Source: Candidatus Peregrinibacteria bacterium (GTDB taxonomy: Bacteria > Patescibacteriota > Gracilibacteria > CAIRYL01 > GCA-016699755). Taken from it: a stretch of 64,000 nucleotides of DNA. The stretch lies in the NCBI GenBank assembly GCA_016699755.1, contig CP065009.1:298098-362097 (forward strand), in the 5' to 3' direction. The notes beneath the pieces were generated by a model that did no database searches, was not told the DNA's origin, and was given only the letters and a program-made list of their open reading frames with translations. The first letter of the stretch is position 1. Each line of letters starts with the position of its first letter. This document shows, piece by piece, positions 50,956 through 62,908 of the stretch. A program made the translations under genes and the position numbers.

Positions 50956-51031
50956 GCCACCATAGCTCAGCTGGTAGAGCGGTCGCTTCGTAAGCGATAG
51001 GTCACCGGTTCAAGTCCGGTTGGTGGCTCCA
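50956..51031 (+). tRNA. tRNA-Thr (anticodon CGU), CCA encoded
   Basis: Hand-folded cloverleaf: acceptor GCCACCA/TGGTGGC, D arm GCTC/GAGC, anticodon stem GTCGC/GCGAT with loop TTCGTAA, T arm ACCGG-TTCAAGT-CCGGT. Confidence 0.9.
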
Positions 51032-51097
51032 GCTTTTTCTTCACTCTCGAAGTTGTTGCTGGTAAGCCATCCAACATGGTACAAACATCATTGTTTC

Positions 51098-51172
51098 GCC
51101 GCCTTAGCTCAGTGGTAGAGCACTGCCATGGTAAGGCAGGGGTCTCGGGTTCAAGTCCCGAAGGCGGCTCCA
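51098..51172 (+). tRNA. tRNA-Thr (anticodon GGU), CCA encoded
   Basis: Acceptor GCCGCCT/AGGCGGC, D arm GCTC/GAGC, anticodon stem CTGCC/GGCAG with loop ATGGTAA, T arm TCGGG-TTCAAGT-CCCGA. Confidence 0.9.
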
Positions 51173-51366
51173 GTTTCATTATCTTTTCTTTCATAAGAAG
51201 AGGGCTTATTTTCGTATTCACTGGCATTCTTCATTATATTTCGGATGTTGTTTTTCATCATAAAAAATAATCTTCTCTTTTTCTTCAGTTTCTTCTGCCC
51301 CAGTGGGCATTTTGTTTGACAAATATCTTAATATTCTTTTATAATAACAAGAGAAAATAAAAAAAA

Positions 51367-52491
51367 ATGACAGACACCCTCCCCCCTTCACCGACTTCAT
51401 CAGACGATAGTCTTCGTGAGAAAGTTCGTAATGCCATTCTTGTAGAAATGGAAAAAGGACGAACACCAGAAGAAATTCTTGACCTTGCGGTTCGCGCAGG
51501 AGCACCAAAAGAGCTCATTGTGGAAGAGCTGGCGAATGTACCAGTAGAAGCACCAAAAAAGAAGGGTATTTCTTTGAATTGGAAATGGTTTGCATATGGA
51601 GGCATGGGGTTTGCATCTGTTGTTGGGGGAATTGCTTTCGCTCTCTGGCTTCCCGAAAAAGAAAGCACCTCTAATGACTTGCCTATAAGCACTCCGCCTG
51701 TTGTTCAAAAAGAACATGCCGTTGCGGAAGAAGAGAAAACAGAAGGGGATGAAAAAAAATCAGAGCAAGAGTCGGAAGGAATAAAGGAGGGTACAAAAGA
51801 GGCTCTTCCTCAAGAAGAGGAAAAAGAAACAGAAAATGCAGAAGATCTTGCTACCACCACCAAGGAGACAGAAAATACAGAAGAGCCTTCTCCAGAGCAA
51901 AAAGAAAGCAAAGATACTCAAGAGACAATTGCAGAAAAGAATGATCCCGAAATCTCAGAAACAGAGAAATCATCCGAATCCACAAAAGAAGAAGCTGTCA
52001 AGGCAGAGCAATCTTCAATAGTTGAGGAGGATGCTCTTCCTCTTTTTCTTCGTCTTCCTGAGCAGATTCTGCTTGCCTCTGGAGAATATTCTATTTTGAG
52101 TTCCGATCCGAGTCGTTTGAATATTACCCTAAATGGCTCTGCTCTTTCTCTAACTGGATATGAGCCCGGAATGGCAACGGTAACGCTTGTGGAAAAGGCT
52201 TCCTCCCAAAAATTCTCCTTTTCGGTCAACGTTCTTGCAGAAGAGGTGACGGAGCGAAAAATCCCTCTCACTCTGAATGTAGGGAAGAAAAAGTATATCC
52301 GAAGTTATGTCGATCAAAAAGTGGAGGCAATGAGTTCTGATGAATCGGTTGCTTCTGCAAAAGTATCGGGAAGTGGAATTCTTGTGATTACTGCGGAGAA
52401 GCAGGGGGAAATAGAAATTTCTGTGACGAACACCGAAAAAAAGCTCACAACGGTGTATGAGCTTTCTGTTGTAGGAGAAAAAACCAAATGA
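51367..52491 (+). CDS. hypothetical single-pass membrane protein with acidic linker and Ig-like C-terminal repeats
   Basis: TM 'GGMGFASVVGGIAFALWL', E/K/T-rich low-complexity region, two beta-rich modules. Confidence 0.5.
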   Translation: MTDTLPPSPTSSDDSLREKVRNAILVEMEKGRTPEEILDLAVRAGAPKELIVEELANVPVEAPKKKGISLNWKWFAYGGMGFASVVGGIAFALWLPEKESTSNDLPISTPPVVQKEHAVAEEEKTEGDEKKSEQESEGIKEGTKEALPQEEEKETENAEDLATTTKETENTEEPSPEQKESKDTQETIAEKNDPEISETEKSSESTKEEAVKAEQSSIVEEDALPLFLRLPEQILLASGEYSILSSDPSRLNITLNGSALSLTGYEPGMATVTLVEKASSQKFSFSVNVLAEEVTERKIPLTLNVGKKKYIRSYVDQKVEAMSSDESVASAKVSGSGILVITAEKQGEIEISVTNTEKKLTTVYELSVVGEKTK

Positions 52492-52495
52492 GCTA

Positions 52496-52936
52496 CTAGG
52501 TTTCTATTCCTTCCGGAAGGGTGTTGAGGAAATTTCCTACCCTCTCTCTTATCTCATCAGGAACAGAACAGTGGGCTAAGAGTGCCTTCGCAAAACTTTT
52601 TAAGACAACAATATTTTTTTCAGGAGGAGTGTCGTTACAAGAAAGAGTTGGGTTGCCTTCTGAGAGAAACATGTTTACGTCTCCGGCACGAAGAACCACT
52701 CCGGTTTTTTTCACTTCTGCGCTTGAAGGAGTCTCTCTGTCTGTAAGATAAAAAGACATATTCACCTCGTTTGGTATATGTGCCAGAATATTCTTGATGT
52801 GTTTTAGAATGCTCGAAATTTGTTGTGAAAAAAGATTTTCTCTTTCTGCTATTCTTTCTTTTGGATAACATTGCTCTGTCATTATACGAAGAAAAATGAA
52901 GAGTGCATTTTTTCTCAAAAAGAATATTCTTGTCAA
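52496..52936 (-). CDS. hypothetical protein
   Basis: 146-aa ORF convergent with the previous gene. No motif recognised. Confidence 0.4.
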   Translation of the reverse strand: MTRIFFLRKNALFIFLRIMTEQCYPKERIAERENLFSQQISSILKHIKNILAHIPNEVNMSFYLTDRETPSSAEVKKTGVVLRAGDVNMFLSEGNPTLSCNDTPPEKNIVVLKSFAKALLAHCSVPDEIRERVGNFLNTLPEGIET

Positions 52937-53031
52937 TTATTTTTCGTTTTTGCTAAAGGAAGAGGGGAATCTGCTTGATGAATACTCCGAAGTCAAAACA
53001 CCTTATTTCATTCCTTCGCCGGAGTGGGTGT

Positions 53032-53070
53032 GGAGGAGTCCCTTGCAGGAGACTCCAGCAGGAGAAAAAA
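53032..53070 (+). repeat. GGAGTC...GACTCC quasi-palindromic element, copy R1
   Basis: 'ggagtcccttGcaggagactccagcaggagaaaaa' is 34/35 identical to R3 (54146-54180) in direct orientation. Confidence 0.85.
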
Positions 53071-53185
53071 TAGGAAAAAAACAGAATATAGTTATTTCCC
53101 TTTACAGCAGTCCTCTCGCTCGTCTAAGTCTTCGTCTTTCGCCATAAACATTCGCAAATCTCACCTTGTTTTGCAAAACCTCAAA

Positions 53186-53230
53186 GAGAGACTTGGACGC
53201 AAAAAGTATAAATGAGCGTCCGAGTCTCTC
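53186..53230 (-). terminator. 15-bp stem-loop, second possible terminator behind the minus-strand gene
   Basis: GAGAGACTTGGACGC (53186-53200) pairs with GCGTCCGAGTCTCTC (53216-53230) with one G-U pair. On the minus strand a U-rich tract follows. Confidence 0.4.
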
Positions 53231-53278
53231 TTCACTCGACTCTTTTTGACTCGACCCTTTTGACTTCTCTCAAAAAGT

Positions 53279-53301
53279 GGCGAAGTCCAAGAGACTTCGC
53301 C
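53279..53301 (-). terminator. intrinsic terminator of the 53317-53919 gene
   Basis: Perfect 9-bp stem GGCGAAGTC/GACTTCGCC with a 5-nt loop. On the minus strand it is followed by ACTTTTTGAG, 16 nt after the stop codon. Confidence 0.6.
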
Positions 53302-53316
53302 AAACAAGGTACTTGC

Positions 53317-53919
53317 TCACTGACATTCGGATAAAATGGAACGAAGTTTCTTAGCGTTTTGTTCGGAGCTTTCTATCAAACTGCGATAACGAGAGTTCAG
53401 AAAGACATCAAAACTATCTATGTAATGTAAGTTCTGATTTTTATCCAAAACAACATTTTCTTCTCCATTATCTGATAAATCAAGCACCTTTCCTTTTGCA
53501 AGCCATTCATCAAAGGCATCAAGAAGATCTTCTAACTGTTGGCGTGTTTGAGGATTAGATTTTAATACTTCCAAAATATACGGTTTATTTTCTTCGGAGA
53601 GCATATCAGTTGTAATTTTTATCGGTTCTGCCAGAACCAAAGCACCAAGAGTTTGTCCGACTTTTGCCCTTATATAAGTCGCATTTGGTACTATCTCACC
53701 AAGTCTTAATTTGATTTCATCGTACTCTTTTTTGTACCTATTCAAATCATCATCTGAAATAAGGCTAAAAGATTTTTTGACATAGGTATGAGCAGTTTTG
53801 TCTCCCTGTGTGTAAGCGTGATAATTTTCACAATGACTGCCATTACGTGTATTTTTACGAATAGAAGCTTTGGGGGAGATACAAGGTACTTCTTCTGACA
53901 AGTTGGGACTTTTAGCCAT
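53317..53919 (-). CDS. hypothetical protein, weak kinase-fold-like catalytic-loop signature
   Basis: 200 aa. 'VLDLSDNGEENVVLDKNQNLHYIDSFDV' resembles the D-x4-N catalytic loop plus the (I/V)D metal-binding strand of RIO/Kdo-type small kinases. No glycine loop seen. Confidence 0.45.
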   Translation of the reverse strand: MAKSPNLSEEVPCISPKASIRKNTRNGSHCENYHAYTQGDKTAHTYVKKSFSLISDDDLNRYKKEYDEIKLRLGEIVPNATYIRAKVGQTLGALVLAEPIKITTDMLSEENKPYILEVLKSNPQTRQQLEDLLDAFDEWLAKGKVLDLSDNGEENVVLDKNQNLHYIDSFDVFLNSRYRSLIESSEQNAKKLRSILSECQ

Positions 53920-54008
53920 TGATAACGAAAGTGAAAGAAAATGTAGTTTTATTTTATTATAAAATATTTCAAGTCTAATGGCAAAATGATTCTGAAAGAT
54001 ATAAACTT

Positions 54009-54044
54009 CCTCCCGCTGGAGTCTCTCGTCAGAGGACTCCGGCG
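54009..54044 (+). repeat. GGAGTC...GACTCC quasi-palindromic element, copy R2 (inverted relative to R1/R3)
   Basis: 'ctcccGCTGGAGTCTC-tcgtcaga-GGACTCCGGC' compared with the reverse complement of R3, 'ctcctGCTGGAGTCTC-ctgaaag-GGACTCCGGC'. The arms are 15/16 and 10/10 identical and the loops are unrelated. Confidence 0.85.
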
Positions 54045-54140
54045 TTAATTGAGATATTCTGGAAATATCCTCATTCTACTGCCTTGAGTTATGGGCAATA
54101 TGATGTTGATGTTTTACATGAATGAGAACGTACCATAGAT

Positions 54141-54175
54141 CTGCCGGAGTCCCTTTCAGGAGACTCCAGCAGGAG
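54141..54175 (+). repeat. GGAGTC...GACTCC quasi-palindromic element, copy R3
   Basis: 'ctgccGGAGTCcctttcaggaGACTCCagcaggag', 96 nt downstream of R2 and fully complementary to its arms. Confidence 0.85.
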
Positions 54176-54306
54176 AAAAATGGCTCCCGCTTGTCATTAC
54201 TTTTTATTTTTGATACATTCATTTCCGATCCATTTTCTAAAATGGAATTGCATCGAGGGTTAGGCTAGAGATGTGAAAACATATCAAAGAGCCAACACCA
54301 TCCGCG

Positions 54307-54512
54307 CTCCTCCTGTCTGGGGAGGAAAAGGAGGTACTCACTGGAAACAGAGAACTATCTCTACCAGAATAGGAAAGTTTTGGATAACTTTCTGAAAAAG
54401 GGAGTCAGGGGAGGAAACAAACCTGACTTCGTGCCCAGAAATAATACTTCAAAACATTCTGAAATCGAAATCAAGGCTTTTATGAGAATTTTCTTCAAAA
54501 AGTCTTGATTTC
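54307..54512 (+). other. hairpin-rich untranslated region directly 5' of the RT (candidate ncRNA/leader)
   Basis: Five hand-folded stem-loops: 54309-54325, 54341-54367, 54373-54392, 54401-54430 (9 bp, starts with GGAGTC) and 54467-54512 (15 bp). Confidence 0.35.
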
Positions 54513-55752
54513 TCCATCCTCTTTTTATTTTACATTGTTATTAAACGAAGTAGCAGAAATAAATAGGCTTAAAAAGTGCTGGATGAGTATTTATGCCAGT
54601 AAATCTGAAGACATTAGAAAAATGTCAAAAGGAATTGACAATGTAACCCTTGAGGATTTTAAAAAGGATGATGATCAAAATTTAAAAGATATACATACTC
54701 AAATAGCAACAGGGAAATTTGAATTTGATGAAATTAAATCTATCCCCAAAAAGAAAAGTAATGGGAAAATTCGTCTTATATCTGCTCCAACTGTGCGGGA
54801 TCGAGTCGTTCATAAATCTATCTTAAGTATTTTAAGTGATGCCTTGTACGATCATATCAATACTGGTGTGAGTTACTGTGGTGTAAAAAAGGATTTTTGG
54901 AAAAAGGAAAAAGACGGACTGAGCATAAAAAGGGCTATTGAACAGTTAGTTACTTATGTGAAGAGACGCAACTATTGGATATTTGAAACAGATATTAAAG
55001 GTTTTTTTGATCATGTTCCCAAAGAAAAAATATTAAAAAAAGTATGCGAAGTGTTACCAGACAGATCGTTGGAAAAGTATCTCAAACAAATAATTTTTTT
55101 TGACATTGGGAATGAGAGTGAACTACTAAAAAAAGAAATCGAAATACCAAATAAAATTAACGGCTTGGCTCAAGGTTCTTCACTTTCACCATTATTCGCC
55201 AATCTTTTTCTTGCTGAATTTGATAATTACATGAAGAGCAAATACGGATTTAGGTATATTCGTTACGTGGATGATTTTATTGTAGTTTGTGAATCTGAAG
55301 AGGAAGCAAAAGAAGCGGAATTGGATTCGACCACAGAATTAAAAAAAGAAAATCTTGAATTATCAAAAGATAAGACCCATATTTTAGATTTGAATCGAAG
55401 TAGTTTGAAATTTTTAGGGGTTCATGTCGATAAATTCTGTATAAAACCCAAGAAAACAACTGGAAAAATAAGGGATTGGCTTGTTAGTGAAGTTTTAAAT
55501 ACTAAATCGTACAAAGTAGTTTTGAGGGCCGGAAAAGAAGTTTCCGTTATAGAACAAATAAATGAGAAAATTCAGGGTTGGGGAAACTTTTACAGGTATT
55601 ATCATGCACAAGAATTGTTTGAAAGTTTGGATGAATTTATCCTCAAAAGAAAAAAAGGGGATAAAAACCTCAAAGACATACTTCTACTCAAAGAAGTGAA
55701 GCTAGAAACAATTGTAAGTCAAGAAGAGTGGCAATCATATTTTAAGGAATAA
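54505..55752 (+). CDS. reverse transcriptase, group-II-intron-like (RT plus maturase-type thumb), free-standing
   Basis: Palm motifs: 'GKIRLISAPTVRDRVVHKSI', 'IFETDIKGFFDHV', 'GLAQGSSLSPLFANLFL', 'IRYVDDFIVV' (YxDD), 'SKDKTHI', 'LKFLGVHV'. Thumb: 'INEKIQGWGNFYRYY...LFESLDEFI'. No endonuclease or DNA-binding tail. TTG 54505 start is provisional (ATG 54583 would cut off the RT0-like 'AEINRLKKCW'). Confidence 0.85.
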   Translation: MISPSSFYFTLLLNEVAEINRLKKCWMSIYASKSEDIRKMSKGIDNVTLEDFKKDDDQNLKDIHTQIATGKFEFDEIKSIPKKKSNGKIRLISAPTVRDRVVHKSILSILSDALYDHINTGVSYCGVKKDFWKKEKDGLSIKRAIEQLVTYVKRRNYWIFETDIKGFFDHVPKEKILKKVCEVLPDRSLEKYLKQIIFFDIGNESELLKKEIEIPNKINGLAQGSSLSPLFANLFLAEFDNYMKSKYGFRYIRYVDDFIVVCESEEEAKEAELDSTTELKKENLELSKDKTHILDLNRSSLKFLGVHVDKFCIKPKKTTGKIRDWLVSEVLNTKSYKVVLRAGKEVSVIEQINEKIQGWGNFYRYYHAQELFESLDEFILKRKKGDKNLKDILLLKEVKLETIVSQEEWQSYFKE

Positions 55753-55930
55753 AATTTCTCCATCCGGTTCGCATGCACGGTATTTATTAGTGGCTGAATT
55801 ATAAGCCTATAAGGTTATTTTTTGCGCCGGACGGGGTGTTCGCGGAGGGTATTGGTGAGGAGCGACAACCCCCTTCATGACGTTTCTTCTTTTAAAAACT
55901 ATACATTTAAGGCAGGTCATGAATTCCCTT

Positions 55931-55962
55931 TCCGCTGGAGTCCGCTACAAGAGGCAGTCTTC
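55931..55962 (+). repeat. degenerate copy R4 of the GGAGTC element (R2 orientation)
   Basis: 'CCGCTGGAGTC' is identical to R2 for 11 nt and the 'AGAGG' core is retained. The distal arm has diverged ('cagtcttcc'). Confidence 0.55.
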
Positions 55963-56001
55963 CTACCTCCCTATTCGGATTTTTTGGCTTACACAAAACG
56001 T

Positions 56002-56076
56002 TGGCTCTCCTTATGTATGGAAGTTCGAACTGTTTTAAGGGAAGAAGAGGGTTTTGTGATGCTAGAAATTCCATAA
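56002..56076 (+). repeat. 75-nt direct repeat, copy A
   Basis: 'tggctctccttatgtatggaagttcgaactgtttt...' aligns without gaps to 61312-61386. By hand count 58/75 are identical, and 32/35 over the first 35 nt. Confidence 0.85.
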
Positions 56077-56136
56077 AGAAAGAAGGGTATTTTTTATGGG
56101 AAAATATAATTTGACATAAATAATAAAATCAATAAA

Positions 56137-57060
56137 ATGCTCTCTTATTTTATAATAATGAGGATTTTAGAAGGGAATAATATTTTTAGTAACATACAGC
56201 AGCTTCCACCTTTCTTAGGCAAAGAGGATGAAAGCAATATAATGCGACAGCAAGAATTAGGTATGTGGATCAATTCTCAGTCGGTGCAATTTGGAGAGCT
56301 TGCAGAACAAATAAAGGAGGGTGTTCATTGTACAAATTCTACTCCAGTGGTACTAAAAAACACGGGTATTCAATCTGTTTCAAAAGAAAGCAGAACAGCA
56401 ATAATGATAGGATTTTCTACTTTGTTGGGGCGACCCACCCCAACAGATAAGAGAAATAAAAAAGTTGCGTGGCCGATATCCGTTCCCAAAAATGCGGATA
56501 AAATAAATTTTCGTACTTTTTCAGAACATAATCAGGAAGCAAAACTGCATACAGATTCCCAATACCTTCAGTGTCCAGAGCAAGCGATATCTCTTTGGTC
56601 CATTCATCCTGATGGCTCAGGGGAAGGTTTATCCTATTGTGCAAGTGCACAGGACATTCTTCATGAAATGACGGCTCATTCAGCAGGACAAGAGTCGTTG
56701 CAAATTCTTCAAAGAGAGGATGTTCCATTTCGAGTGCCTTCATCATTTATGCAAGATCCTAATAGTAATCAAACAGAGGTGATTTTCGGGAAAATATTTG
56801 GTCAAAATCCAGTAATGAGATATCGAGAAGATACAATTCATGCAGGCTATGATGCTATCAATCAGATTATGCCTCCTGAAATTGAAAAAGCATTGCAAGA
56901 TATATCTACGGCAATGAACAAGGTGCAAAGTGATTTTTTTCTACTGGAAGCAGGTGATGTACTCTGGATTAATAATCACGATCATCTTCACGCAAGAACT
57001 CCCTTTTCTGATTTAGAGAGATTGCTCTTTAGAATTCGTTATAACTTTTCCCAGCAATAA
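56137..57060 (+). CDS. Fe(II)/2-oxoglutarate dioxygenase, TauD/TfdA (clavaminate-synthase-like) family
   Basis: 'AKLHTDSQY' (HxD) and distal 'WINNHDHLHARTPF' with a trailing Arg, the facial-triad layout of this family. Confidence 0.6.
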   Translation: MLSYFIIMRILEGNNIFSNIQQLPPFLGKEDESNIMRQQELGMWINSQSVQFGELAEQIKEGVHCTNSTPVVLKNTGIQSVSKESRTAIMIGFSTLLGRPTPTDKRNKKVAWPISVPKNADKINFRTFSEHNQEAKLHTDSQYLQCPEQAISLWSIHPDGSGEGLSYCASAQDILHEMTAHSAGQESLQILQREDVPFRVPSSFMQDPNSNQTEVIFGKIFGQNPVMRYREDTIHAGYDAINQIMPPEIEKALQDISTAMNKVQSDFFLLEAGDVLWINNHDHLHARTPFSDLERLLFRIRYNFSQQ

Positions 57061-57809
57061 TGAAATCAATACTCGTTACTGGCGCATCAAGAGGATTGGG
57101 GAAAGGGATTTCTCAATATCTGGACAAAGAAGGACACCGTGTTATCGCTACAGGAAGAGACACTGATTCCCTTCAGACATTGGCTGATCACGGAAATAGC
57201 ATTGAGATATTTACAGCAGATATTTCTACTGCCGAAGGCATAGATACTGTTGTTCAACAAGGAATTCAGCATCAGGTAGATGTCGTGATAAACAATGCTG
57301 GATTTGGGGTTGTTGGAAAACTAAAAGAAATTTCTCGAGAATCCTTACTGAGAATCTTAGAAACAAATTTGGTTGCCCCCATAGAAATCACAAAGGGACT
57401 GCGAAACCAGATAGCAAAAAAACAAGGAAGTTTTGGTTACATTACTTCATTAGCTGGAAAAATGGGATTCCCTGATATGATATCGTACTCTGCTTCAAAA
57501 TTTGGACTTGAAGGAGCAATCGAAAGCCTTCGATATGAATTAGAACCCTTGGGCATAGGATTGACAGTTGTTCGCCCTGGGATGGTTGATACCGATTTTT
57601 TTGATACTGCTGGTTTAACGGAACAAGTAGAGGGAGCAAAGTCAGATGGTTTACTAAAACAGCCCGAAGAAATCGCTCAAGAAATATGTGAAGGAATCCT
57701 GACCAAACAAAGAGAAGTTGTTATCGGGAGTGATAAAGACTTCTTGAGACGATTGCCAAATATCTCTTTTGATGAACGATTAAAAGTTCTCGGAGAAATG
57801 TCTTCATAA
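57060..57809 (+). CDS. short-chain dehydrogenase/reductase (SDR)
   Basis: 'ILVTGASRGLGKGI', 'NNAG', 'YSASK'. Start overlaps the previous stop (TAATG). Confidence 0.85.
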   Translation: MKSILVTGASRGLGKGISQYLDKEGHRVIATGRDTDSLQTLADHGNSIEIFTADISTAEGIDTVVQQGIQHQVDVVINNAGFGVVGKLKEISRESLLRILETNLVAPIEITKGLRNQIAKKQGSFGYITSLAGKMGFPDMISYSASKFGLEGAIESLRYELEPLGIGLTVVRPGMVDTDFFDTAGLTEQVEGAKSDGLLKQPEEIAQEICEGILTKQREVVIGSDKDFLRRLPNISFDERLKVLGEMSS

Positions 57810-57825
57810 TTTTTTTACTTTTGAT

Positions 57826-58836
57826 ATGAATAAAACCATAGATCGACGACTCAAGCCAGAAGAGTATATTGTTACTGGTCAAGAACCCACAGACGAAGAA
57901 GCATATGCAAAATTTTTACACGACCTTACTGATGTTCCGGAATCCCAACCACTCAATGCTATTCCTATTGACCGTGCAGGGATAGCAAACCAATCAAGCA
58001 TCATTCAAATTCGAGATTTTTTTGGAAATACGTTCTCTCATGTTCCTGTAACAATGAAATTAGGAGCAAGCTTAGAAGATCATCGAGGGGTCCACATGTC
58101 TCGTTTTGAAGAAGCATTATTTGCCGCATCAAGAAAAAAATATGACAGTATTGATGAATTTACTCAGGCAATGGCTGAAGAGATTCGCTCTCGACAAAAT
58201 TCAGATACCGCATATGTAAATGCACAGGGGGAATACTTGCACCCACGAAAAACGCGTAAAAGCGAAAAATTCTCTCACGATAAAGTACATCTCTCTAGTA
58301 CTACCGAAAGTATTGGTGACGAATTGCATCAAATAACAGGAGTAAGGGCATACAATATGACCGCCTGCCCTTGTACAAAAACTCATACGAAATATGTTAC
58401 CGTTCCGGCTTTGCGAGAAATGGGGCTTAGTGTTGAGCAAATAAATAAAGTTTTAAATGTGGCACTTACAGGGACTCACACCCAAAGAGGAGAAATCAGT
58501 TTGGTTTTGGATAAAACATCTGATGCCATAACACAAGAAGACATTTATGGTATTTTGGATGATAAAGCACACCTTGTGTATGAATTGCTCAAACGACCTG
58601 ATGAGCACGACCTTGTTATTAGAGCATTGCAAAAACCTCAATTTACTGAGGATGTGGCAAGAGATGTGGCATTGGGAGCATTTGAGTTTTTTGATAAAAA
58701 AGCCCCTGATAATACGAGAGTATGGGTTGAATCAACCCTCAACGACAGCATCCATATTCACGATGTACAGACAGCGATAAATAGTAGCCTTGGACAAATC
58801 AGAAAAGCATTAGCCAACTCTCAACAATCACTATGA
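57826..58836 (+). CDS. GTP cyclohydrolase, FolE2/MptA (COG1469) family
   Basis: 'HRGVHMSRFEE', 'MTACPCTK' and 'GTHTQRGEISL' correspond, as far as I recall, to the conserved HMSRF, CPCS and HNQR blocks of the family. Confidence 0.6.
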   Translation: MNKTIDRRLKPEEYIVTGQEPTDEEAYAKFLHDLTDVPESQPLNAIPIDRAGIANQSSIIQIRDFFGNTFSHVPVTMKLGASLEDHRGVHMSRFEEALFAASRKKYDSIDEFTQAMAEEIRSRQNSDTAYVNAQGEYLHPRKTRKSEKFSHDKVHLSSTTESIGDELHQITGVRAYNMTACPCTKTHTKYVTVPALREMGLSVEQINKVLNVALTGTHTQRGEISLVLDKTSDAITQEDIYGILDDKAHLVYELLKRPDEHDLVIRALQKPQFTEDVARDVALGAFEFFDKKAPDNTRVWVESTLNDSIHIHDVQTAINSSLGQIRKALANSQQSL

Positions 58837-60026
58837 TACCAAAGAATCAACCTGCACAAATTTATGACCTTAATATAGGGGCAAGTATAGTCGGGAGAAA
58901 TGCCTCTCCATATCTTACAAATGAAGACAGAAGAGCATTACAACGCTTAATGTCAGAATTCTCAAATATGTTTCAGGATACAAGAGGAGAAAAACCAGCA
59001 TTGGTAAATACTGATGAATCTTCCTTCAAGCAGGCTACGGCGTTTAGCGAAAGAATAAGAAGACAGTTAGAGGGCCTTCAAGACTATCCAAAAGAGGTAG
59101 TAGTGAGATTGAGAGAATGTCTTGATCAATTTGATGCTCAGGCCCGAAAAGAACATCTAGATAGAGATGGTTTAACGCTGGACAAAGAGCAAGTTGTTCA
59201 TTTATTAGATATTCCAGAGATCCTAGATACATCTCTGTTAAATGAAATAGTTCATAACGAGAGTCAGTGGACCGAGCAACACCATCCTGATGTATTGTCA
59301 CAACTCAGAAATAGGATTGATGCCACTCAGACCCGAGAACTTATACAGGCTTGTGTACAATCTCTGTTTAGAGAAAATATTGATGTTTCTGCGGATATTT
59401 ATACTCAAGATACAGTAGATAGATATTATCTATATTGGTCTACTAATGGTAATGGACTTGATTATGCAACACCATCTCAATACGAACTTGCAACACAGCT
59501 TTCCTTTGATATTCCCCATAATGCAGCTCATTTATTACACTTATCATTTGCTGGTGAACATTCTGTCGAGCAATATATAGACCGGATGAAAGAGAGAACA
59601 TATACAGAAGCTATTGCGGTATTGTCTGAACACCAGATGTACGAACAAGCAGCAGAACAAGGAGAGGTAATAAGAAGCTTTTCTGAGATTCTCAGTATTC
59701 CTATTGATCAACTGTCAGAATGGATAAAACAGGACAGGTCATATGAGTTTCGTCTCCGTCTCGCTCGTCTCTTGTCTGATATAAATACCTTCAATGGAAA
59801 ATCATTTATAGAAAATGTCGCTGCAATTGAAGAAAAACTGTATATCTCACAAAAAGATGCTACCGCAGAAGCCCAGAAATATTATGCTTGGACAGGTTTA
59901 GGAGCAGCCTATACATTGGGATATAATCGGCTCTTATCGCATGGAATACAAAACGCACGAGATGCAATGGCACTCCAAAGTGGAGAATTATTATTTTCGT
60001 GGGAGGATTTTCTTGATTCGAAATAG
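58833..60026 (+). CDS. hypothetical protein (weak DUF885-like C-terminal pattern)
   Basis: ATGA-coupled to the FolE2-like gene. 'DIPHNAAHLLHLSFAGEH' His-rich block, and 'KYYAWTGLGAAYTLGYNRL' resembles the DUF885 'PGQA.sY.iG' block. Low confidence. Confidence 0.35.
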   Translation: MIPKNQPAQIYDLNIGASIVGRNASPYLTNEDRRALQRLMSEFSNMFQDTRGEKPALVNTDESSFKQATAFSERIRRQLEGLQDYPKEVVVRLRECLDQFDAQARKEHLDRDGLTLDKEQVVHLLDIPEILDTSLLNEIVHNESQWTEQHHPDVLSQLRNRIDATQTRELIQACVQSLFRENIDVSADIYTQDTVDRYYLYWSTNGNGLDYATPSQYELATQLSFDIPHNAAHLLHLSFAGEHSVEQYIDRMKERTYTEAIAVLSEHQMYEQAAEQGEVIRSFSEILSIPIDQLSEWIKQDRSYEFRLRLARLLSDINTFNGKSFIENVAAIEEKLYISQKDATAEAQKYYAWTGLGAAYTLGYNRLLSHGIQNARDAMALQSGELLFSWEDFLDSK

Positions 60027-61148
60027 ACTCCATAAAAATAAAATGGCAGCAGCAATTTTTATTCCCAATATAAAATAAATAGCATATTCAATAGTTTCAT
60101 CTAAAAGTATTCCAATAGGTATCTTCGTAAAAAGCAATAGCAATGCTCCCCCTAGGCTTACAATTGAAAAAGAACTCGTAAGCCATTTTTTGGGGACGGT
60201 ATCAGCAATGATACTTTTATAGGCTACTCGATAGATATTTTCCACGAAAAAAAAGAGAAAGAGTGCGAGTGCGGAAAAAATCGGATGAAGAAAAAGTAAG
60301 AAAAAAAATATTGTTGCCTGCATGAGTGCGCCCCATATCAGAATTTTATCTTTTCCCAAAAGAAAAAGAAAAAATGTGCTGAAGTAACTCCCAAGTAGTG
60401 AGCCGATCTTTGCAACGGCATACACTACTCCAAAAAATCCAATAGCGATGCCGGATTGTTCTAATCCGATTTGGAATACACTTTCCCCGCGCTCTTGCAT
60501 TAGCCCCCCTGCGAGTATAAATATCACTGCCAATGGCAATAGTATTTTTGCCTTCATTCCTGTACTATTTTTTCTTACCCATTGCCGTTCACTAGTCCCC
60601 TTGTCATTTGGTAGAAAAAATACGATTGTAATCGAGAAAAGCACTAATAGAAAACCAACAATAAAAGTATGTTGAATATTAATATGAAGAAGTGAGAGAA
60701 ACATATAACTCAATATCATTCCTCCTATCGTCCCAACTTCATCAGCTATTTGAAACTCTCGAAGTAATAATTCAGTCTTTTTTGAATGGAATGTAGAGAG
60801 GAGGAAAGATTCTTCTGTGCCAGAAAGAGATGATAGTCCAAGAGCAAAAAATATTTCGCTGATTAAAAATGTAAAAAAATTATCAGCAAAAGAGAGAATG
60901 AAAAATGATATTCCTAGGGAAAGTAACCCCAATATCATAACCTTTTTTTTGTTCCAAATATCAGCCGCATATGAGCTTGGTATTTCAGAAAGAAGAAGGG
61001 TGATAAATCCTATTGACTGAATAAGGCTTATCTCTAAAAAGGAAAGACCTTGAGAATGTTGAAAAATTATCAATACAGGTATGAGCAATCCGATTGCTCC
61101 ATGTTGCAAGCCTATCCCACAGTAAAATAAATTCCTAGAAAAATTCAT
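59991..61148 (-). CDS. MFS transporter
   Basis: 385 aa, about 12 hydrophobic helices. Convergent 36-nt overlap with the previous gene. Confidence 0.7.
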   Translation of the reverse strand: MNFSRNLFYCGIGLQHGAIGLLIPVLIIFQHSQGLSFLEISLIQSIGFITLLLSEIPSSYAADIWNKKKVMILGLLSLGISFFILSFADNFFTFLISEIFFALGLSSLSGTEESFLLSTFHSKKTELLLREFQIADEVGTIGGMILSYMFLSLLHINIQHTFIVGFLLVLFSITIVFFLPNDKGTSERQWVRKNSTGMKAKILLPLAVIFILAGGLMQERGESVFQIGLEQSGIAIGFFGVVYAVAKIGSLLGSYFSTFFLFLLGKDKILIWGALMQATIFFFLLFLHPIFSALALFLFFFVENIYRVAYKSIIADTVPKKWLTSSFSIVSLGGALLLLFTKIPIGILLDETIEYAIYFILGIKIAAAILFLWSLFRIKKILPRK

Positions 61149-61311
61149 CTTTAATCACTTATTAGTATGCATCACTATCGTAGCACTATATGTTATTGGA
61201 ATGGAACATAATTCACCATATCGTCATAAAGTGACTCCTCAAGTCTACACTTTGAGAATATAAGATCCTATGAAAACTTATTTATGGCTTTATATAGGCA
61301 TAAAACGAGCA

Positions 61312-61386
61312 TGGCTCCCCTTGTGTATGGAAGTTCGAACTATTTTGTTGGAAGAATCAGATTTTGTGGTGCCAAAGATTGTATAG
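61312..61386 (+). repeat. 75-nt direct repeat, copy B
   Basis: 'tggctccccttgtgtatggaagttcgaactatttt...', see copy A. Both copies end with a stop codon at the same aligned position in the same frame. Confidence 0.85.
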
Positions 61387-61447
61387 TTTTTGAAATCTTC
61401 TTTTGCTCTCTGCTGGATCATGCCTGGCAATAGATATTTTTTCTGCT

Positions 61448-62011
61448 TCATAATTTTTCAAGTTCTTTCATGATTGTAAATACCACAGATTCAGCGTTAA
61501 ACTGATCTGTATCTACAGAAAAGACATTTGAATCGAGAAATTCTTTTTGATAATCACAATTCCATAATCGATAGTTTCTATTTATATATTCTTGCACATC
61601 ATCTTTGGAAACATTTCGATACTTTCTTCTATCATCATTACAGGAGCGCTTGAGAAGAGACTCCTTTGAAGCATGGAGATCAAGAATAACTGAAGTATTT
61701 CCGGACTTCTTTATTTGTTGAAACAGATTTCGATATAAAACCATGTATTGTTTAGAATTTCGGTCTAACACTTGTGTGGTAATAAGTACCCCCTCACCCA
61801 CATCGATAAATGATTGTAAGAGATGTTTTCGCAAAGCAAAAATTGAGTTTTTTGCTGCAGTCGTTTTAAAGTCAAAAAGTTCAGTGACGACATCTACAAG
61901 GGCATGATTATGTAAAAAATGAGCATTTGGAATTTGTTTTAAAAGCAGCCTGCCGATAGTGTTTTTTCCTGATGCAGGTGGACCAAAGATACAAATGAGT
62001 TTGACTTTCAT
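61448..62011 (-). CDS. P-loop kinase-like ATPase (AAA_33/shikimate-kinase-like fold)
   Basis: 'CIFGPPASGKNTIGRLL' Walker A. Small single-domain size. Confidence 0.55.
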   Translation of the reverse strand: MKVKLICIFGPPASGKNTIGRLLLKQIPNAHFLHNHALVDVVTELFDFKTTAAKNSIFALRKHLLQSFIDVGEGVLITTQVLDRNSKQYMVLYRNLFQQIKKSGNTSVILDLHASKESLLKRSCNDDRRKYRNVSKDDVQEYINRNYRLWNCDYQKEFLDSNVFSVDTDQFNAESVVFTIMKELEKL

Positions 62012-62051
62012 ATTTTTATTAATAAAATAATATTCTATATTTTATTGAGAA

Positions 62052-62777
62052 ATGCAAACAAATCGTATCGTTACATTTCCAGAATGGGAAATCAATGTTT
62101 CTGATGAGGGTCGGCAAAAAATAAATGCAGTACGTTCAGAGTGTCAAAAAAATCAAAATGTAAATGCACTTTTTTTACAAGGTTCAGCCCTGAGGGGCGA
62201 GGGTGGGGTAAGAAGTGATATTGATTTTATCATCCTGTTTGATTCTGTGTCCGAAAAGGTACATGACTTTGTTCGTAAGTTGTTTGCTGAATTTTCAGAT
62301 ACAGATTATTTTTATTCTTCTATTAGAGAATATCAATCGTATCCTGTTGGTCTAAGGTTTCAGTTCTTTTTATCTCAACAAATTTATGGAGAGCCAGAAA
62401 TACTTGGGCAACCGCCAACAAGCCAAGATCTTTCACAGGTTCTCGCTTATTACTCTTCTTCTTTAAAAGATCAATTGAGGCCTTTGATTTTCCGAAATGA
62501 TTTGTCTGATATTGAGCTTTTCAATAGGGCATATTCTTTATTAAAAAGAGTTGATGACTGTATTATTCGTGTTCAAGATGCTATACAGACAGGAATTTAC
62601 CCTAAACAAAGAGCTCTGATACAAACAGAACCAAATCAAGATGGTCAGCATCTCCTTGAGCTGTTAGATAAATGGCAATCCCAAGGGCATCAACCTGATT
62701 CTCAAGAAATTCGCCAATCAGTTTCTACTATTGATACATTTTTGAGGGAATTTATTGAAAAACATCTGAATACATAA
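62052..62777 (+). CDS. nucleotidyltransferase-domain protein (ANT/AadA-like architecture)
   Basis: 'LFLQGSALRGEGGVRSDIDFIILFD' (GS-x10-DxD Pol-beta NTase motif) plus a helical C-terminal domain. Confidence 0.6.
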   Translation: MQTNRIVTFPEWEINVSDEGRQKINAVRSECQKNQNVNALFLQGSALRGEGGVRSDIDFIILFDSVSEKVHDFVRKLFAEFSDTDYFYSSIREYQSYPVGLRFQFFLSQQIYGEPEILGQPPTSQDLSQVLAYYSSSLKDQLRPLIFRNDLSDIELFNRAYSLLKRVDDCIIRVQDAIQTGIYPKQRALIQTEPNQDGQHLLELLDKWQSQGHQPDSQEIRQSVSTIDTFLREFIEKHLNT

Positions 62778-62833
62778 AAGAAATACTGCTAATTATAAAT
62801 ATTTTATGGCTTTAATAAGCCATAAAATAAGAT

Positions 62834-62908
62834 TGGCTCGGGAGGAAGGATTCGAACCTTCGAATGACGGATTCAGAGTCCGTTGCCTTACCACTTGGCG
62901 ACTCCCGA
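62834..62908 (-). tRNA. tRNA-Gln (anticodon CUG), CCA encoded
   Basis: Minus strand: acceptor TCGGGAG/CTCCCGA, 3-bp D stem GCC-AAGTGGTAA-GGC, anticodon stem ACGGA/TCCGT with loop CTCTGAA, T arm GAAGG-TTCGAAT-CCTTC, then G-CCA. Confidence 0.9.

Follow-up and report, generated by a model that had tools for sequence, protein, structure and literature searches.

A free-standing group-II-like reverse transcriptase and its conserved upstream structured RNA: a candidate two-component module in Candidatus Peregrinibacteria

Within a stretch of 64,000 nucleotides of a Candidatus Peregrinibacteria genome (hereafter the window) we found a reverse transcriptase (RT) gene that belongs to the group II intron / G2L / CRISPR-RT supergroup and that is directly preceded, on the same strand, by a structured RNA that constitutes a new RNA family: conserved, covarying and specific for the clade of this RT. 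The reading that we favor, at a probability of roughly 0.55, is that the two are the components of an RT-ncRNA module of a new G2L clade, forming a cDNA-making ribonucleoprotein (RNP) with a likely defensive role. The original prediction had proposed an RT with an adjacent structured ncRNA, set between two hairpin-rich flanks; what stands of it are the approximately 300 nt upstream, which are conserved, covarying, clade-specific and equipped with a promoter-like site, and what falls outside the module are the 384 nt downstream and the far-upstream hairpins. The features are listed in Table 1.

Table 1. Features of the RT locus (positions within the window)
Feature	Position	Strand	Description
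Promoter-like site	54191..54219	+	TTGTCA-17 nt-TACATT, TG before the -10; would place the transcription start at the RNA's 5' hairpin
Conserved structured RNA	54226..54522	+	~297 nt, co-oriented with the RT gene; fold z-score -6.5
RNA 5' domain	54232..54319	+	P1 hairpin, three-tier P2 stem with AUGAA-type apical loop, CUCCUCC / 'CACCUCC' segment; covariance-model match
Central P3 helices	54341..54375	+	CUGG...CCAG around AGAG...CUCU, then the conserved AAUAGGAA motif; from sequences and folds
Internal hairpin	54402..54430	+	GAGUCAGG...CCUGACUUC, with UUUCUGAAA 5' of it; from sequence and fold
Terminal hairpin and tail	54467..54522	+	Arms 54467-54488 and 54491-54512, an inverted repeat; tail UCUCCAUCC
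RT gene as annotated	54505..55752	+	415 aa from TTG 54505
RT gene, likelier start	54535..55752	+	405 aa from TTG 54535; YVDD-bearing fingers-palm and thumb/maturase domain; endonuclease domain lacking

The 415-aa ORF that had been described is present, and the YVDD palm and maturase-type thumb that had been read from its translation were recovered in a domain search as matches to RVT_1 (1.3e-27) and to the maturase thumb GIIM (2.8e-7); an endonuclease tail is absent, as had also been claimed. In an alignment with 19 homologues the catalytic residues D163, Y254, D256 and D257 (YVDD) are invariant. The annotated start codon falls within the conserved terminal hairpin of the upstream RNA, in its 3' arm, and alignment with the N-termini of the homologues favors the in-frame TTG 30 nt further on as the likelier start. 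The AF2 model of the protein has a pLDDT of 91.7, with residues 1-8 below 50. An identical protein on record is a hypothetical protein of Candidatus Peregrinibacteria. The idea that the segment SYCGVKK forms a special priming loop was dropped; it is presumably a variant of the group II RT motif 2 (SYGFRPGR).

The supergroup membership of the RT follows from sequence as well as structure comparisons. The best PDB matches of a profile of the RT family were Cas6-RT-Cas1, the G2L4 RT and group II RTs (126-157 bits), the G2L4 RT being matched over its full length and joint-best with 156 bits, and the structures closest to the AF2 model were those of the G2L4 RT (TM 0.72) and the GsI-IIC RT (0.68). 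The NCBIfam model of group II RT/maturases (TIGR04416) yielded 201 bits, with a cutoff of 300 bits. The RT is thus nearest to the group II RTs in sequence and structure and is devoid of intron RNA structure, which makes it a free-standing (G2L) RT on the basis of profile and structure matches. The scores for other classes were low: for DRT2, 77 bits with the NCBIfam model NF041746 (cutoff 390 bits) and 63 bits with the PDB chain; for DRT9, 43 bits; and for retron RTs, 50 bits with the St85 model NF038233 (cutoff 235 bits) and around 32 bits with the PDB chains. A Cas domain, as would identify a CRISPR-associated RT, is absent from the 405-415-aa protein, and no cas genes were found among the ORFs at 44-64 kb of the window or in the homologous loci. 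In the homologue search the family appeared as a discrete clade of around 22 clusters (35-49% identity), after which the scores drop from 241 to 129 bits. The clade is a small, previously unclassified group of the G2L type that occurs mostly in the CPR/Patescibacteria; literature searches returned no description of the clade or of its RNA, and close members were not found in IMG/VR.

The structured RNA is not that of a group II intron, in line with what had been claimed. The Rfam covariance search that had been proposed as a check returned no match in the whole window at the gathering score and none at E ≤ 10 between positions 53700 and 56300, for any family, those of group II included. The RNA folds far better than expected (0 of 200 shuffles fold as well) and the same architecture was recovered in separate folds of 14 loci, whose upstream regions share sequence motifs in a plain MAFFT alignment. 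Across the clade the RNA measures 230-300 nt and includes four or more covarying helices. The arms of P3 vary from locus to locus and yet stay complementary (CCUGA/UCAGG, CUUGA/UCAAG, GUCUGA/UCAGAC, UCUGAU/AUCAGA and CUGG/CCAG, as aligned by eye, without statistics). The terminal hairpin, with family consensus GAAGUCAAGG...CCUUGACUUC, has a base of conserved sequence and a covarying tip; by analogy it is a candidate RT-binding site. Together with its tail it ends 13 nt upstream of the likely start codon, and among the loci the RNA ends 8-25 nt upstream of the start. By sequence and fold, the internal hairpin resembles a duplicate of the terminal-hairpin module, and two modules of the type 'UUCCGAAA + hairpin' are also present in loci L003, L007, L011 and L012. 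The 'CACCUCC' segment resembles an anti-Shine-Dalgarno sequence; the idea of a functional mimic was set aside, as the segment apparently pairs inside the RNA (with P3 / GGAGG segments). In the RNA no template-like feature was recognised, be it a repeat, a homopolymer tract or, by eye, an A-B-A' motif, an observation that counts against the module.

The specificity and covariation of the RNA were evaluated with covariance models. Plain MAFFT alignments put the helices of the 5' domain out of register, so that RNAalifold gave no structure on them, and a model built from a single sequence and then iterated was used instead. The model built from locus L001 alone finds the window copy of the 5' domain at 21.9 bits, and the R2 model scores it at 66.3 bits (E = 2e-14), the sole match below E = 0.2 in the 64-kb window. 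Among the sequences examined, the model of the 5' domain found further matches only in 12 loci, in each case upstream of an RT of this clade; with a five-sequence model the matches to loci outside the training set (L173, 5e-7; L007, 2e-5; L012, 8e-4; L171, 2e-3; L008, 9e-3; L003, 0.02) were all located on the RT strand, directly upstream of the RT. Within the 0.53 Mb surrounding 100 more distant RTs there was one match, and that belonged to a truncated member of the clade (L102). The test of whether homologous loci share and covary in their flanks, which had been proposed earlier, thus turned out positive for the upstream RNA: in alignment A7 of the 5' domain 86% of the cells pair and 22 of the 26 pairs show compensatory change (reached in 0 of 500 shuffles), counts that are somewhat inflated as A7 was fitted to the model. 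For the terminal hairpin, the alignment (A2) was made on sequence only, and compensatory change was found in 10 of 10 pairs, with 87.9% of the cells pairing, as compared to 27-55% in slid controls and with 0 of 500 shuffles reaching the observed value. The 5' domain gave no covariance-model match in L010, L172, L013, L174 and L014; the terminal hairpin is visible by eye in L013 and L174, and the divergent subclade of L010 and L172 has a variant upstream block in which a GUCAAG...CUUGA hairpin is kept. Scanning viral contigs for the palindrome of the terminal hairpin produced many chance palindromes and was uninformative.

The 5' end of the RNA fits the placement of a predicted promoter. A -35/-10 pair is found at the same position relative to P1 in 12 of 12 loci tested, where the mean promoter score is 8.2 (of a maximum of 12), as compared to 4.1 ± 1.0 at random positions, and none of 500 random sets scored as high. 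A terminator-like site was not found between the RNA and the RT ORF, and the RNA is probably co-transcribed with the RT gene.

With respect to the wider flanks the picture is mixed. Stable structure had been claimed on both sides of the RT. Upstream this held for the RNA and also for the region before it (53920-54225, z = -5.5), which contains window-specific REP/MITE-like palindromes and the promoter of the neighboring gene; the GGAGTC hairpins in this region are absent from all fetched loci and were discarded as part of the module. Downstream (55753-56136) it did not hold: z equals 0.02, and 50 of the 100 shuffles reach an equally stable fold. The GC-rich hairpin that had been singled out there does exist, at 55833-55872 and not around 55845-55890, and it carries a 2-nt internal mismatch and lies outside the minimum-energy fold. 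As to the claim that this flank lacks a convincing ORF of at least 60 aa, the flank does hold an 84-aa ORF starting with TTG (55822-56076). The 384 nt were left out of the module, on the basis of their z-score and the lack of a conserved gap in the homologues, whose downstream gaps are mostly 2-55 nt; the upstream gene-free gap, on the other hand, measures at least 266 nt in each of the 16 homologous loci whose annotation or match coordinates were usable. Other gaps of 300-380 nt occur in the same low-GC island of the window (52937-53316 and 61149-61447). A 12-nt direct repeat that brackets the RT ORF was rejected as a conserved feature, being present in the window alone and absent from 10 other loci tested.

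No neighboring protein is conserved: in the 12 loci that were compared the neighbors are mutually unrelated, and this includes the 200-aa divergent gene. The homologous loci are often located amid restriction, TIR, Abi-like and toxin-antitoxin genes, and the defence-type neighbors encode: a ThsB-like TIR protein and SLATT, an AbiO/Nhi-like helicase, a type II restriction endonuclease with its methyltransferase, Mrr, a PLD nuclease and HicA. Several loci adjoin resolvases, recombinases or integrases. The RT in the window sits in a low-GC island bounded by tRNA genes, near a TauD-SDR-FolE2 operon and genes for proteins of unknown function; that its own neighbors are not defence genes counts against the module.

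As we envisage the module, a transcript would start at the predicted promoter and run through the structured RNA into the RT gene. The RT would bind the leader of its own transcript, with the terminal hairpin beside the start codon as the most likely site, comparable to the binding of the group II intron protein at domain IVa, and RT and leader RNA would form a stable RNP in which part of the RNA may serve as template or scaffold for cDNA. We infer binding, cDNA synthesis and defence. Anti-phage defence, without a dedicated protein effector, would be the most likely role, since retrons, DRT2, DRT9 and DRT10 offer an analogy and the homologous loci have defence-type neighbors.

The proposed module resembles various known systems in part. 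DRT2, DRT9 and DRT10 are class 2 UG/Abi RTs whose templates are ncRNAs encoded upstream; the DRT10 ncRNA has 137 nt and an A-B-A' template, the product is a tandem-repeat cDNA and a gene encoding a SLATT (SLATT-5) effector is adjacent. The clade shares with these systems the succession of promoter, structured ncRNA and RT on one strand and the tendency of its loci toward defence-gene neighborhoods, and with DRT2 and DRT9 the absence of a conserved protein partner; the RT lineage is different, however (63 and 43 bits to DRT2 and DRT9, versus 150-157 to G2L4 and group II RTs), and the RNA is of an unrelated family in which a template signature was not recognised. In retrons, msDNA is produced from an msr-msd RNA that is marked by the inverted repeats a1 and a2 and by a branching G. 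They are similar in having a structured ncRNA directly upstream of, and co-transcribed with, a small RT (co-transcription being predicted here) and a variable central stem between conserved elements, but their RT is of another class, the clade has no conserved effector gene, and a1/a2 repeats and a branching G were not noticed in its RNA. With the group II intron RNP the clade has in common the RT lineage, the maturase-type thumb and a conserved hairpin just upstream of, or overlapping, the RT start, whereas ribozyme domains I-VI, a downstream RNA, flanking exons and the endonuclease domain are all lacking. The G2L4 RT of Pseudomonas aeruginosa (PDB 9d4s/9d5x) is likewise a stand-alone protein of around 410 aa with fingers, palm and thumb and no intron RNA. 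The RT does not belong to the G2L4 subgroup, as the identity to 9d4s is only around 23% and YVDD is invariant in the clade, in contrast to the YIDD active site emphasised for G2L4 (10.1101/2022.03.14.484287); moreover, the clade has a conserved upstream structured RNA and G2L4 has no dedicated RNA. That G2L4, the closest characterised relative, acts in DNA repair without an RNA partner counts against the module.

A purely cis-regulatory leader would look alike, because the RNA abuts the start codon without a terminator. The RT, or another factor, would then autoregulate translation at the terminal hairpin, as LtrA does at domain IVa of its group II intron, and would have its substrates elsewhere (DNA repair, cellular or phage RNAs). 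The sequence conservation of the basal stem is what a protein-binding site would display, and the lack of an RNA partner in G2L4 fits as well. Nevertheless, we consider this explanation unlikely: a multi-domain RNA of this size, with its covarying helices, exceeds the needs of a translational operator, it has its own precisely placed predicted promoter and it strictly co-occurs with the clade. Moreover, all characterised bacterial pairs of an RT and an upstream RNA that we know of (retrons, DRT2, DRT9, DRT10; PMC12632851) use the RNA as a template.

Three further explanations start from the kinship of the RT. The unit could be a (formerly) mobile retroelement of an unrecognised type, whose RNA would be left over or derived from an intron-like RNA that serves retromobility and not the host. 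G2L RTs are thought to derive from group II introns (PMC8632793), the recombination genes mentioned above adjoin several homologous loci, and the window copy lies in its tRNA-bounded island bracketed by the 12-nt repeat and REP-like palindromes. This is nonetheless decidedly improbable, as there is no match to an Rfam group II domain even at E ≤ 10 and no endonuclease domain, an RNA part corresponding to domains V/VI and a conserved gap are both missing downstream, the repeat is absent from the other loci tested, IMG/VR lacks clade members and the window protein, the single member of its cluster on record (from three contigs), gives no sign of multiple copies. That the RNA domains of an ordinary or degenerate intron were simply overlooked has a next to negligible probability, even though group II RT/maturase models score the RT best and the GIIM thumb is present. 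An ordinary intron was rejected for lack of a match to the Rfam group II models in either flank; the RT stays below the equivalog cutoff of TIGR04416, domains IV-VI find no room because homologues mostly have just 2-55 nt after the stop codon, and the upstream RNA measures only 230-300 nt and its conserved architecture is a different one. The RT might, finally, be a divergent member of UG17/DRT10 that makes tandem-repeat cDNA from its ncRNA: UG17 was formerly classed as G2L3 (PMC8632793), DRT10 has its ncRNA upstream (PMC12632851), and the PADLOC RT_UG17 model yields 143 bits, with positions 26-352 of its 429-position profile matched. We regard this as very improbable and rejected the membership, since this partial match remains below that of a generic RT model (186 bits) and unrelated G2L-like RTs score 93-154 bits against UG17, which marks it as a generic cross-hit. 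In addition, the RNA is about twice as long as the ncRNA of DRT10 and lies directly upstream of the RT instead of a SLATT gene, and neither the window nor any homologous locus has a SLATT partner, except L003, where it is part of a convergent SLATT_1-TIR-HSP70 operon.

To our knowledge, all experimentally characterised bacterial systems of an RT and an ncRNA (retrons, DRT2, DRT3, DRT9, DRT10) employ RTs of the retron or UG/Abi class, and the free-standing group-II-like RTs that we know of either lack an RNA partner, like G2L4 in DNA repair, or are fused to CRISPR adaptation proteins. A large, specific and covarying RNA in a G2L-type clade would extend the RT-ncRNA principle to a third RT lineage, and the compact module of around 1.55 kb would lend itself to the search for a novel cDNA product or defence mode. 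Group-II-type RTs are prized tools for their processivity and template switching, and a natural RNA-guided one could be of interest to technology. A bolder and rather doubtful extension would be that a group-II-derived RT lineage kept or re-invented a non-ribozyme partner RNA, independently of the UG/Abi RTs, giving rise to an effector-less, cDNA-producing RNP that is an intermediate between intron and immune system, is largely confined to the CPR and makes a new kind of DNA product. The module occurs in the CPR bacteria, whose defence and retroelement biology is, as far as we know, almost unexplored, and it bears on the way in which intron RTs were domesticated.

The sequence analysis showed that a clade-specific, promoter-equipped and covarying RNA of ~300 nt directly precedes a reverse transcriptase (RT) of the group II intron-like (G2L) type, and that the unit has no conserved protein partner. 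The 415-aa RT ORF of the original prediction was recovered (the product is identical to the hypothetical protein IPN35_01560 on record), as were its palm motifs with the YVDD box (RVT_1, 1.3e-27), its maturase-type thumb (GIIM, 2.8e-7) and the lack of an endonuclease domain. Residues D163, Y254, D256 and D257 (YVDD) were invariant in the alignment of 19 homologues, and the RT is of G2L type and catalytically intact. The listed TTG start lies inside a conserved hairpin; an in-frame TTG at 54535 yields the N-terminus MLLNEVAEINRLKKCW, which the alignment places in register with the homologues, and residues 1-8 are disordered in the AF2 model (pLDDT 91.7).

The best curated model for the RT was group II intron RT/maturase (201 bits, below the 300-bit cutoff), and the Drt2, Drt3a, retron and Drt4 models (48-77 bits) remained far under their respective cutoffs. 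When the clade profile was run against all PDB chains, the highest scores were obtained for Cas6-RT-Cas1 and G2L4 RT (156.5 bits each, the latter match spanning the full length of G2L4), followed by group II intron RTs (126-150 bits); DRT2 (63 bits), UG15 (48), DRT9 (43) and the retrons (~32) scored low. The structures closest to the AF2 model were those of G2L4 RT (TM 0.72) and then GsI-IIC RT (0.68). Together ~22 clusters (35-49% identity) form a small, discrete clade, beyond which scores fall from 241 to 129 bits. Its hosts are Peregrinibacteria, Gracilibacteria, other Patescibacteria, Margulisiibacteriota and one Methylococcaceae MAG; no close member was found in IMG/VR.

Features of the RT locus (window positions)
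Feature	Position	Strand	Remark
RT ORF	54505-55752	+	415 aa; listed start TTG 54505
Conserved structured RNA, ~300 nt	54226-54522	RT strand	fold z-score, covariance model, alignment
Promoter-like site of the RNA	54191-54219		-35/-10-like pair
GGAGTC-loop-GACTCC repeat, REP/MITE-like	53035-53056, 54018-54040, 54146-54167; degenerate 55932-55960	both orientations
Divergent ORFs upstream of RT	53317-53919 (200 aa), 52496-52936 (146 aa)	-

A gene-free gap of at least 266 nt (range 266-1073 nt) precedes the RT in every fetched homologous locus. A plain MAFFT alignment of 14 such upstream regions contained the following shared motifs: a 5' hairpin with loop UAARRU, GCUCU..GGUUAG, an AUGAA-loop hairpin, AAGAGCACCUCC, AGAGAAC with AUCAGAAUAGGAA, UUCCGAAA, and a terminal hairpin GAAGUCAAGG...CCUUGACUUC that ends 8-25 nt 5' of the start codon. 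Independent minimum-energy folds gave a single architecture for the 5' domain, helix P1 followed by a three-tier P2; putative central helices (P3) and a second copy of the 'UUCCGAAA + hairpin' module are by-eye readings of the folds. The most conserved single-stranded-looking motif, (A)AGAGCACCUCC (54308-54314 and equivalents in homologues), includes CACCUCC, which is also the anti-Shine-Dalgarno sequence at the 3' end of 16S rRNA, and pairs in the folds with internal GGAGG/UAGGA segments.

A covariance model made from one homologous locus (L001) already recovered the window copy (54232-54319) and those of L005, L011 and L006. Rebuilt from these five sequences, it recovered further loci outside the training set, on the RT strand and immediately upstream of the RT: L173 (E = 5e-7), L007 (2e-5), L012 (8e-4), L171 (2e-3), L008 (9e-3), L003 (0.02) and L009 (0.5). 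The window copy (E = 2e-14) was the sole match under E = 0.2 in the 64 kb, and 0.53 Mb surrounding 100 more distant RTs yielded only L102, a contig-truncated clade member. In a 10-sequence alignment of the 5' domain 86% of cells pair and 22/26 pairs show compensatory changes, counts that are somewhat inflated because the alignment was fitted to the model (0/500 shuffles attain these values; slid controls 32-51%). For the terminal hairpin, aligned on sequence only, all 10 pairs are compensated and 87.9% of cells pair (0/500 shuffles; slid controls 27-55%). A -35/-10-like pair lies directly 5' of P1 in 12/12 loci (mean score 8.2 of 12 vs 4.1 ± 1.0 at random; 0/500 random sets as high), and no terminator-like site occurs between RNA and RT ORF. 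The five-sequence model did not detect the 5' domain in L013, L174, L014, L010 and L172. The last two, an 'SYCLPK' RT subclade, have a conserved upstream block of their own (L010 2740-2790, L172 1315-1370) with a GUCAAG...CUUGA hairpin; it consists of CCCCAAAGUCAAGYCCGA...UCGGACYUGA, located ~250 nt 5' of the start codon, and of ACUAYUUCAUYAUAAC, and may be a variant partner RNA.

Both flanks had been described as rich in stable hairpins. This applied to the upstream RNA (fold z = -6.5, far more stable than shuffles) and to 53920-54225 (z = -5.5), the latter because of two inverted copies of the palindromic repeat GGAGTC-loop-GACTCC, and not to the downstream flank (55753-56136), whose fold is no more stable than that of shuffles (z = 0.02). 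The repeat, often followed by AGCAGGAGAAAAA, is present as three exact copies against an expectation of 0.04; these all fall in a 3-kb region around the RT, and the repeat is absent from the remaining window and from the 174 loci searched; the inverted pair 54007-54045 / 54140-54178 forms an element of ~170 nt. Region 53920-54225 also carries what looks like a strong promoter of the divergent 200-aa gene. The GC-rich downstream hairpin, formerly put at ~55845-55890, maps to 55833-55872 and includes an internal mismatch, and the flank, claimed to be free of ORFs of at least 60 aa in any convincing frame, contains an 84-aa TTG ORF. Downstream gaps in homologous loci are mostly 2-55 nt, and this flank is outside the conserved module. 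The RT ORF is bracketed by an exact 12-nt direct repeat, ATTTCTCCATCC; the copy at 54510-54521 forms the tail of the terminal RNA hairpin, and that at 55754-55765 begins 2 nt past the stop codon. A match of this length was found in 0/300 random 100-nt windows, and the repeat was not seen in 10 homologous loci.

The RT neighbours in 12 loci have no similarity to one another, and therefore there is no conserved protein partner. Defence-related or mobile genes are nevertheless frequent among them. L001 has an AbiO/Nhi-like helicase together with MazG and McrB-like genes, L003 has HicA, and L009 has Mrr plus a DNA methylase. L171 combines a type II REase and its MTase with an integrase and a toxin-antitoxin pair, L173 has a PLD nuclease, and resolvases occur in L006 and L007. 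In the Gracilibacteria locus L003 (4281-7050; also L004) a convergent operon of SLATT_1/DUF4231, ThsB-like TIR and HSP70 follows the RT, with the only SLATT near any clade member. In the window, tRNA genes (50956-51169 and 62837-62908) bound a low-GC stretch that contains the RT. This stretch (51200-62800; GC 0.34-0.39 vs 0.40-0.44 elsewhere) also contains several proteins without family match, an MFS transporter, a deoxynucleoside-kinase-like gene and a nucleotidyltransferase, and looks like a variable island adjoining housekeeping genes (RF, RelA/SpoT, HtrA). The operon directly 3' of the RT (56137-60026) encodes a TauD-like dioxygenase, a short-chain dehydrogenase, a FolE2-type GTP cyclohydrolase I and a 397-aa protein without Pfam match; the operon contains no recognised defence gene. 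For the two divergent ORFs, Pfam, NCBIfam and PADLOC gave no convincing match, and neither ORF resembles RT neighbours in other loci. One G2L cluster has been reported among queuosine-pathway and GTP cyclohydrolase genes (PMC8632793); the homologous loci examined did not share the association with a GTP cyclohydrolase operon.

Several other explanations were weighed. An ordinary group II intron is extremely improbable: in the Rfam check proposed originally, 53700-56300 gave two chance-level matches and no group II intron RNA at E ≤ 10, the whole window gave three tRNAs only at gathering score, and the RT is without endonuclease domain. The PADLOC RT_UG17 match (143 bits) is non-specific, since 93-154 bits are reached by other G2L-like RTs too. 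UG17, formerly 'G2L3' (PMC8632793), is DRT10 and is defined by its SLATT partner (PMC12632851; 10.64898/2026.04.29.721553), which is absent at the window RT, so that a divergent DRT10 is very unlikely. That the unit is an unrecognised retroelement seems improbable, and that the RNA is a purely cis-regulatory leader is a somewhat less unlikely alternative.

In the RT-plus-ncRNA reading that we prefer, the RT would bind the upstream RNA, the terminal hairpin being the likeliest candidate site since its base is sequence-conserved, its tip covaries, it adjoins the start codon and the window RNA seems to contain a second copy of it. In group II introns domain IVa sits beside the start codon, and the terminal hairpin has a like position. 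The RNP would then make cDNA from part of the RNA; no template signature was recognised in it. The parallel with retrons, DRT2, DRT9 and DRT10, together with the neighbourhoods, suggests that the system may act in defence. The literature searched contained no description of the RT clade or its RNA, and Rfam 15 contains no matching family for the latter. The module as originally predicted is retained for the conserved, covarying upstream RNA, and loses the downstream flank and the far-upstream repeats. We classify it as an RT-plus-upstream-ncRNA module of known layout, whose RT is of the G2L lineage and whose RNA represents a new family.
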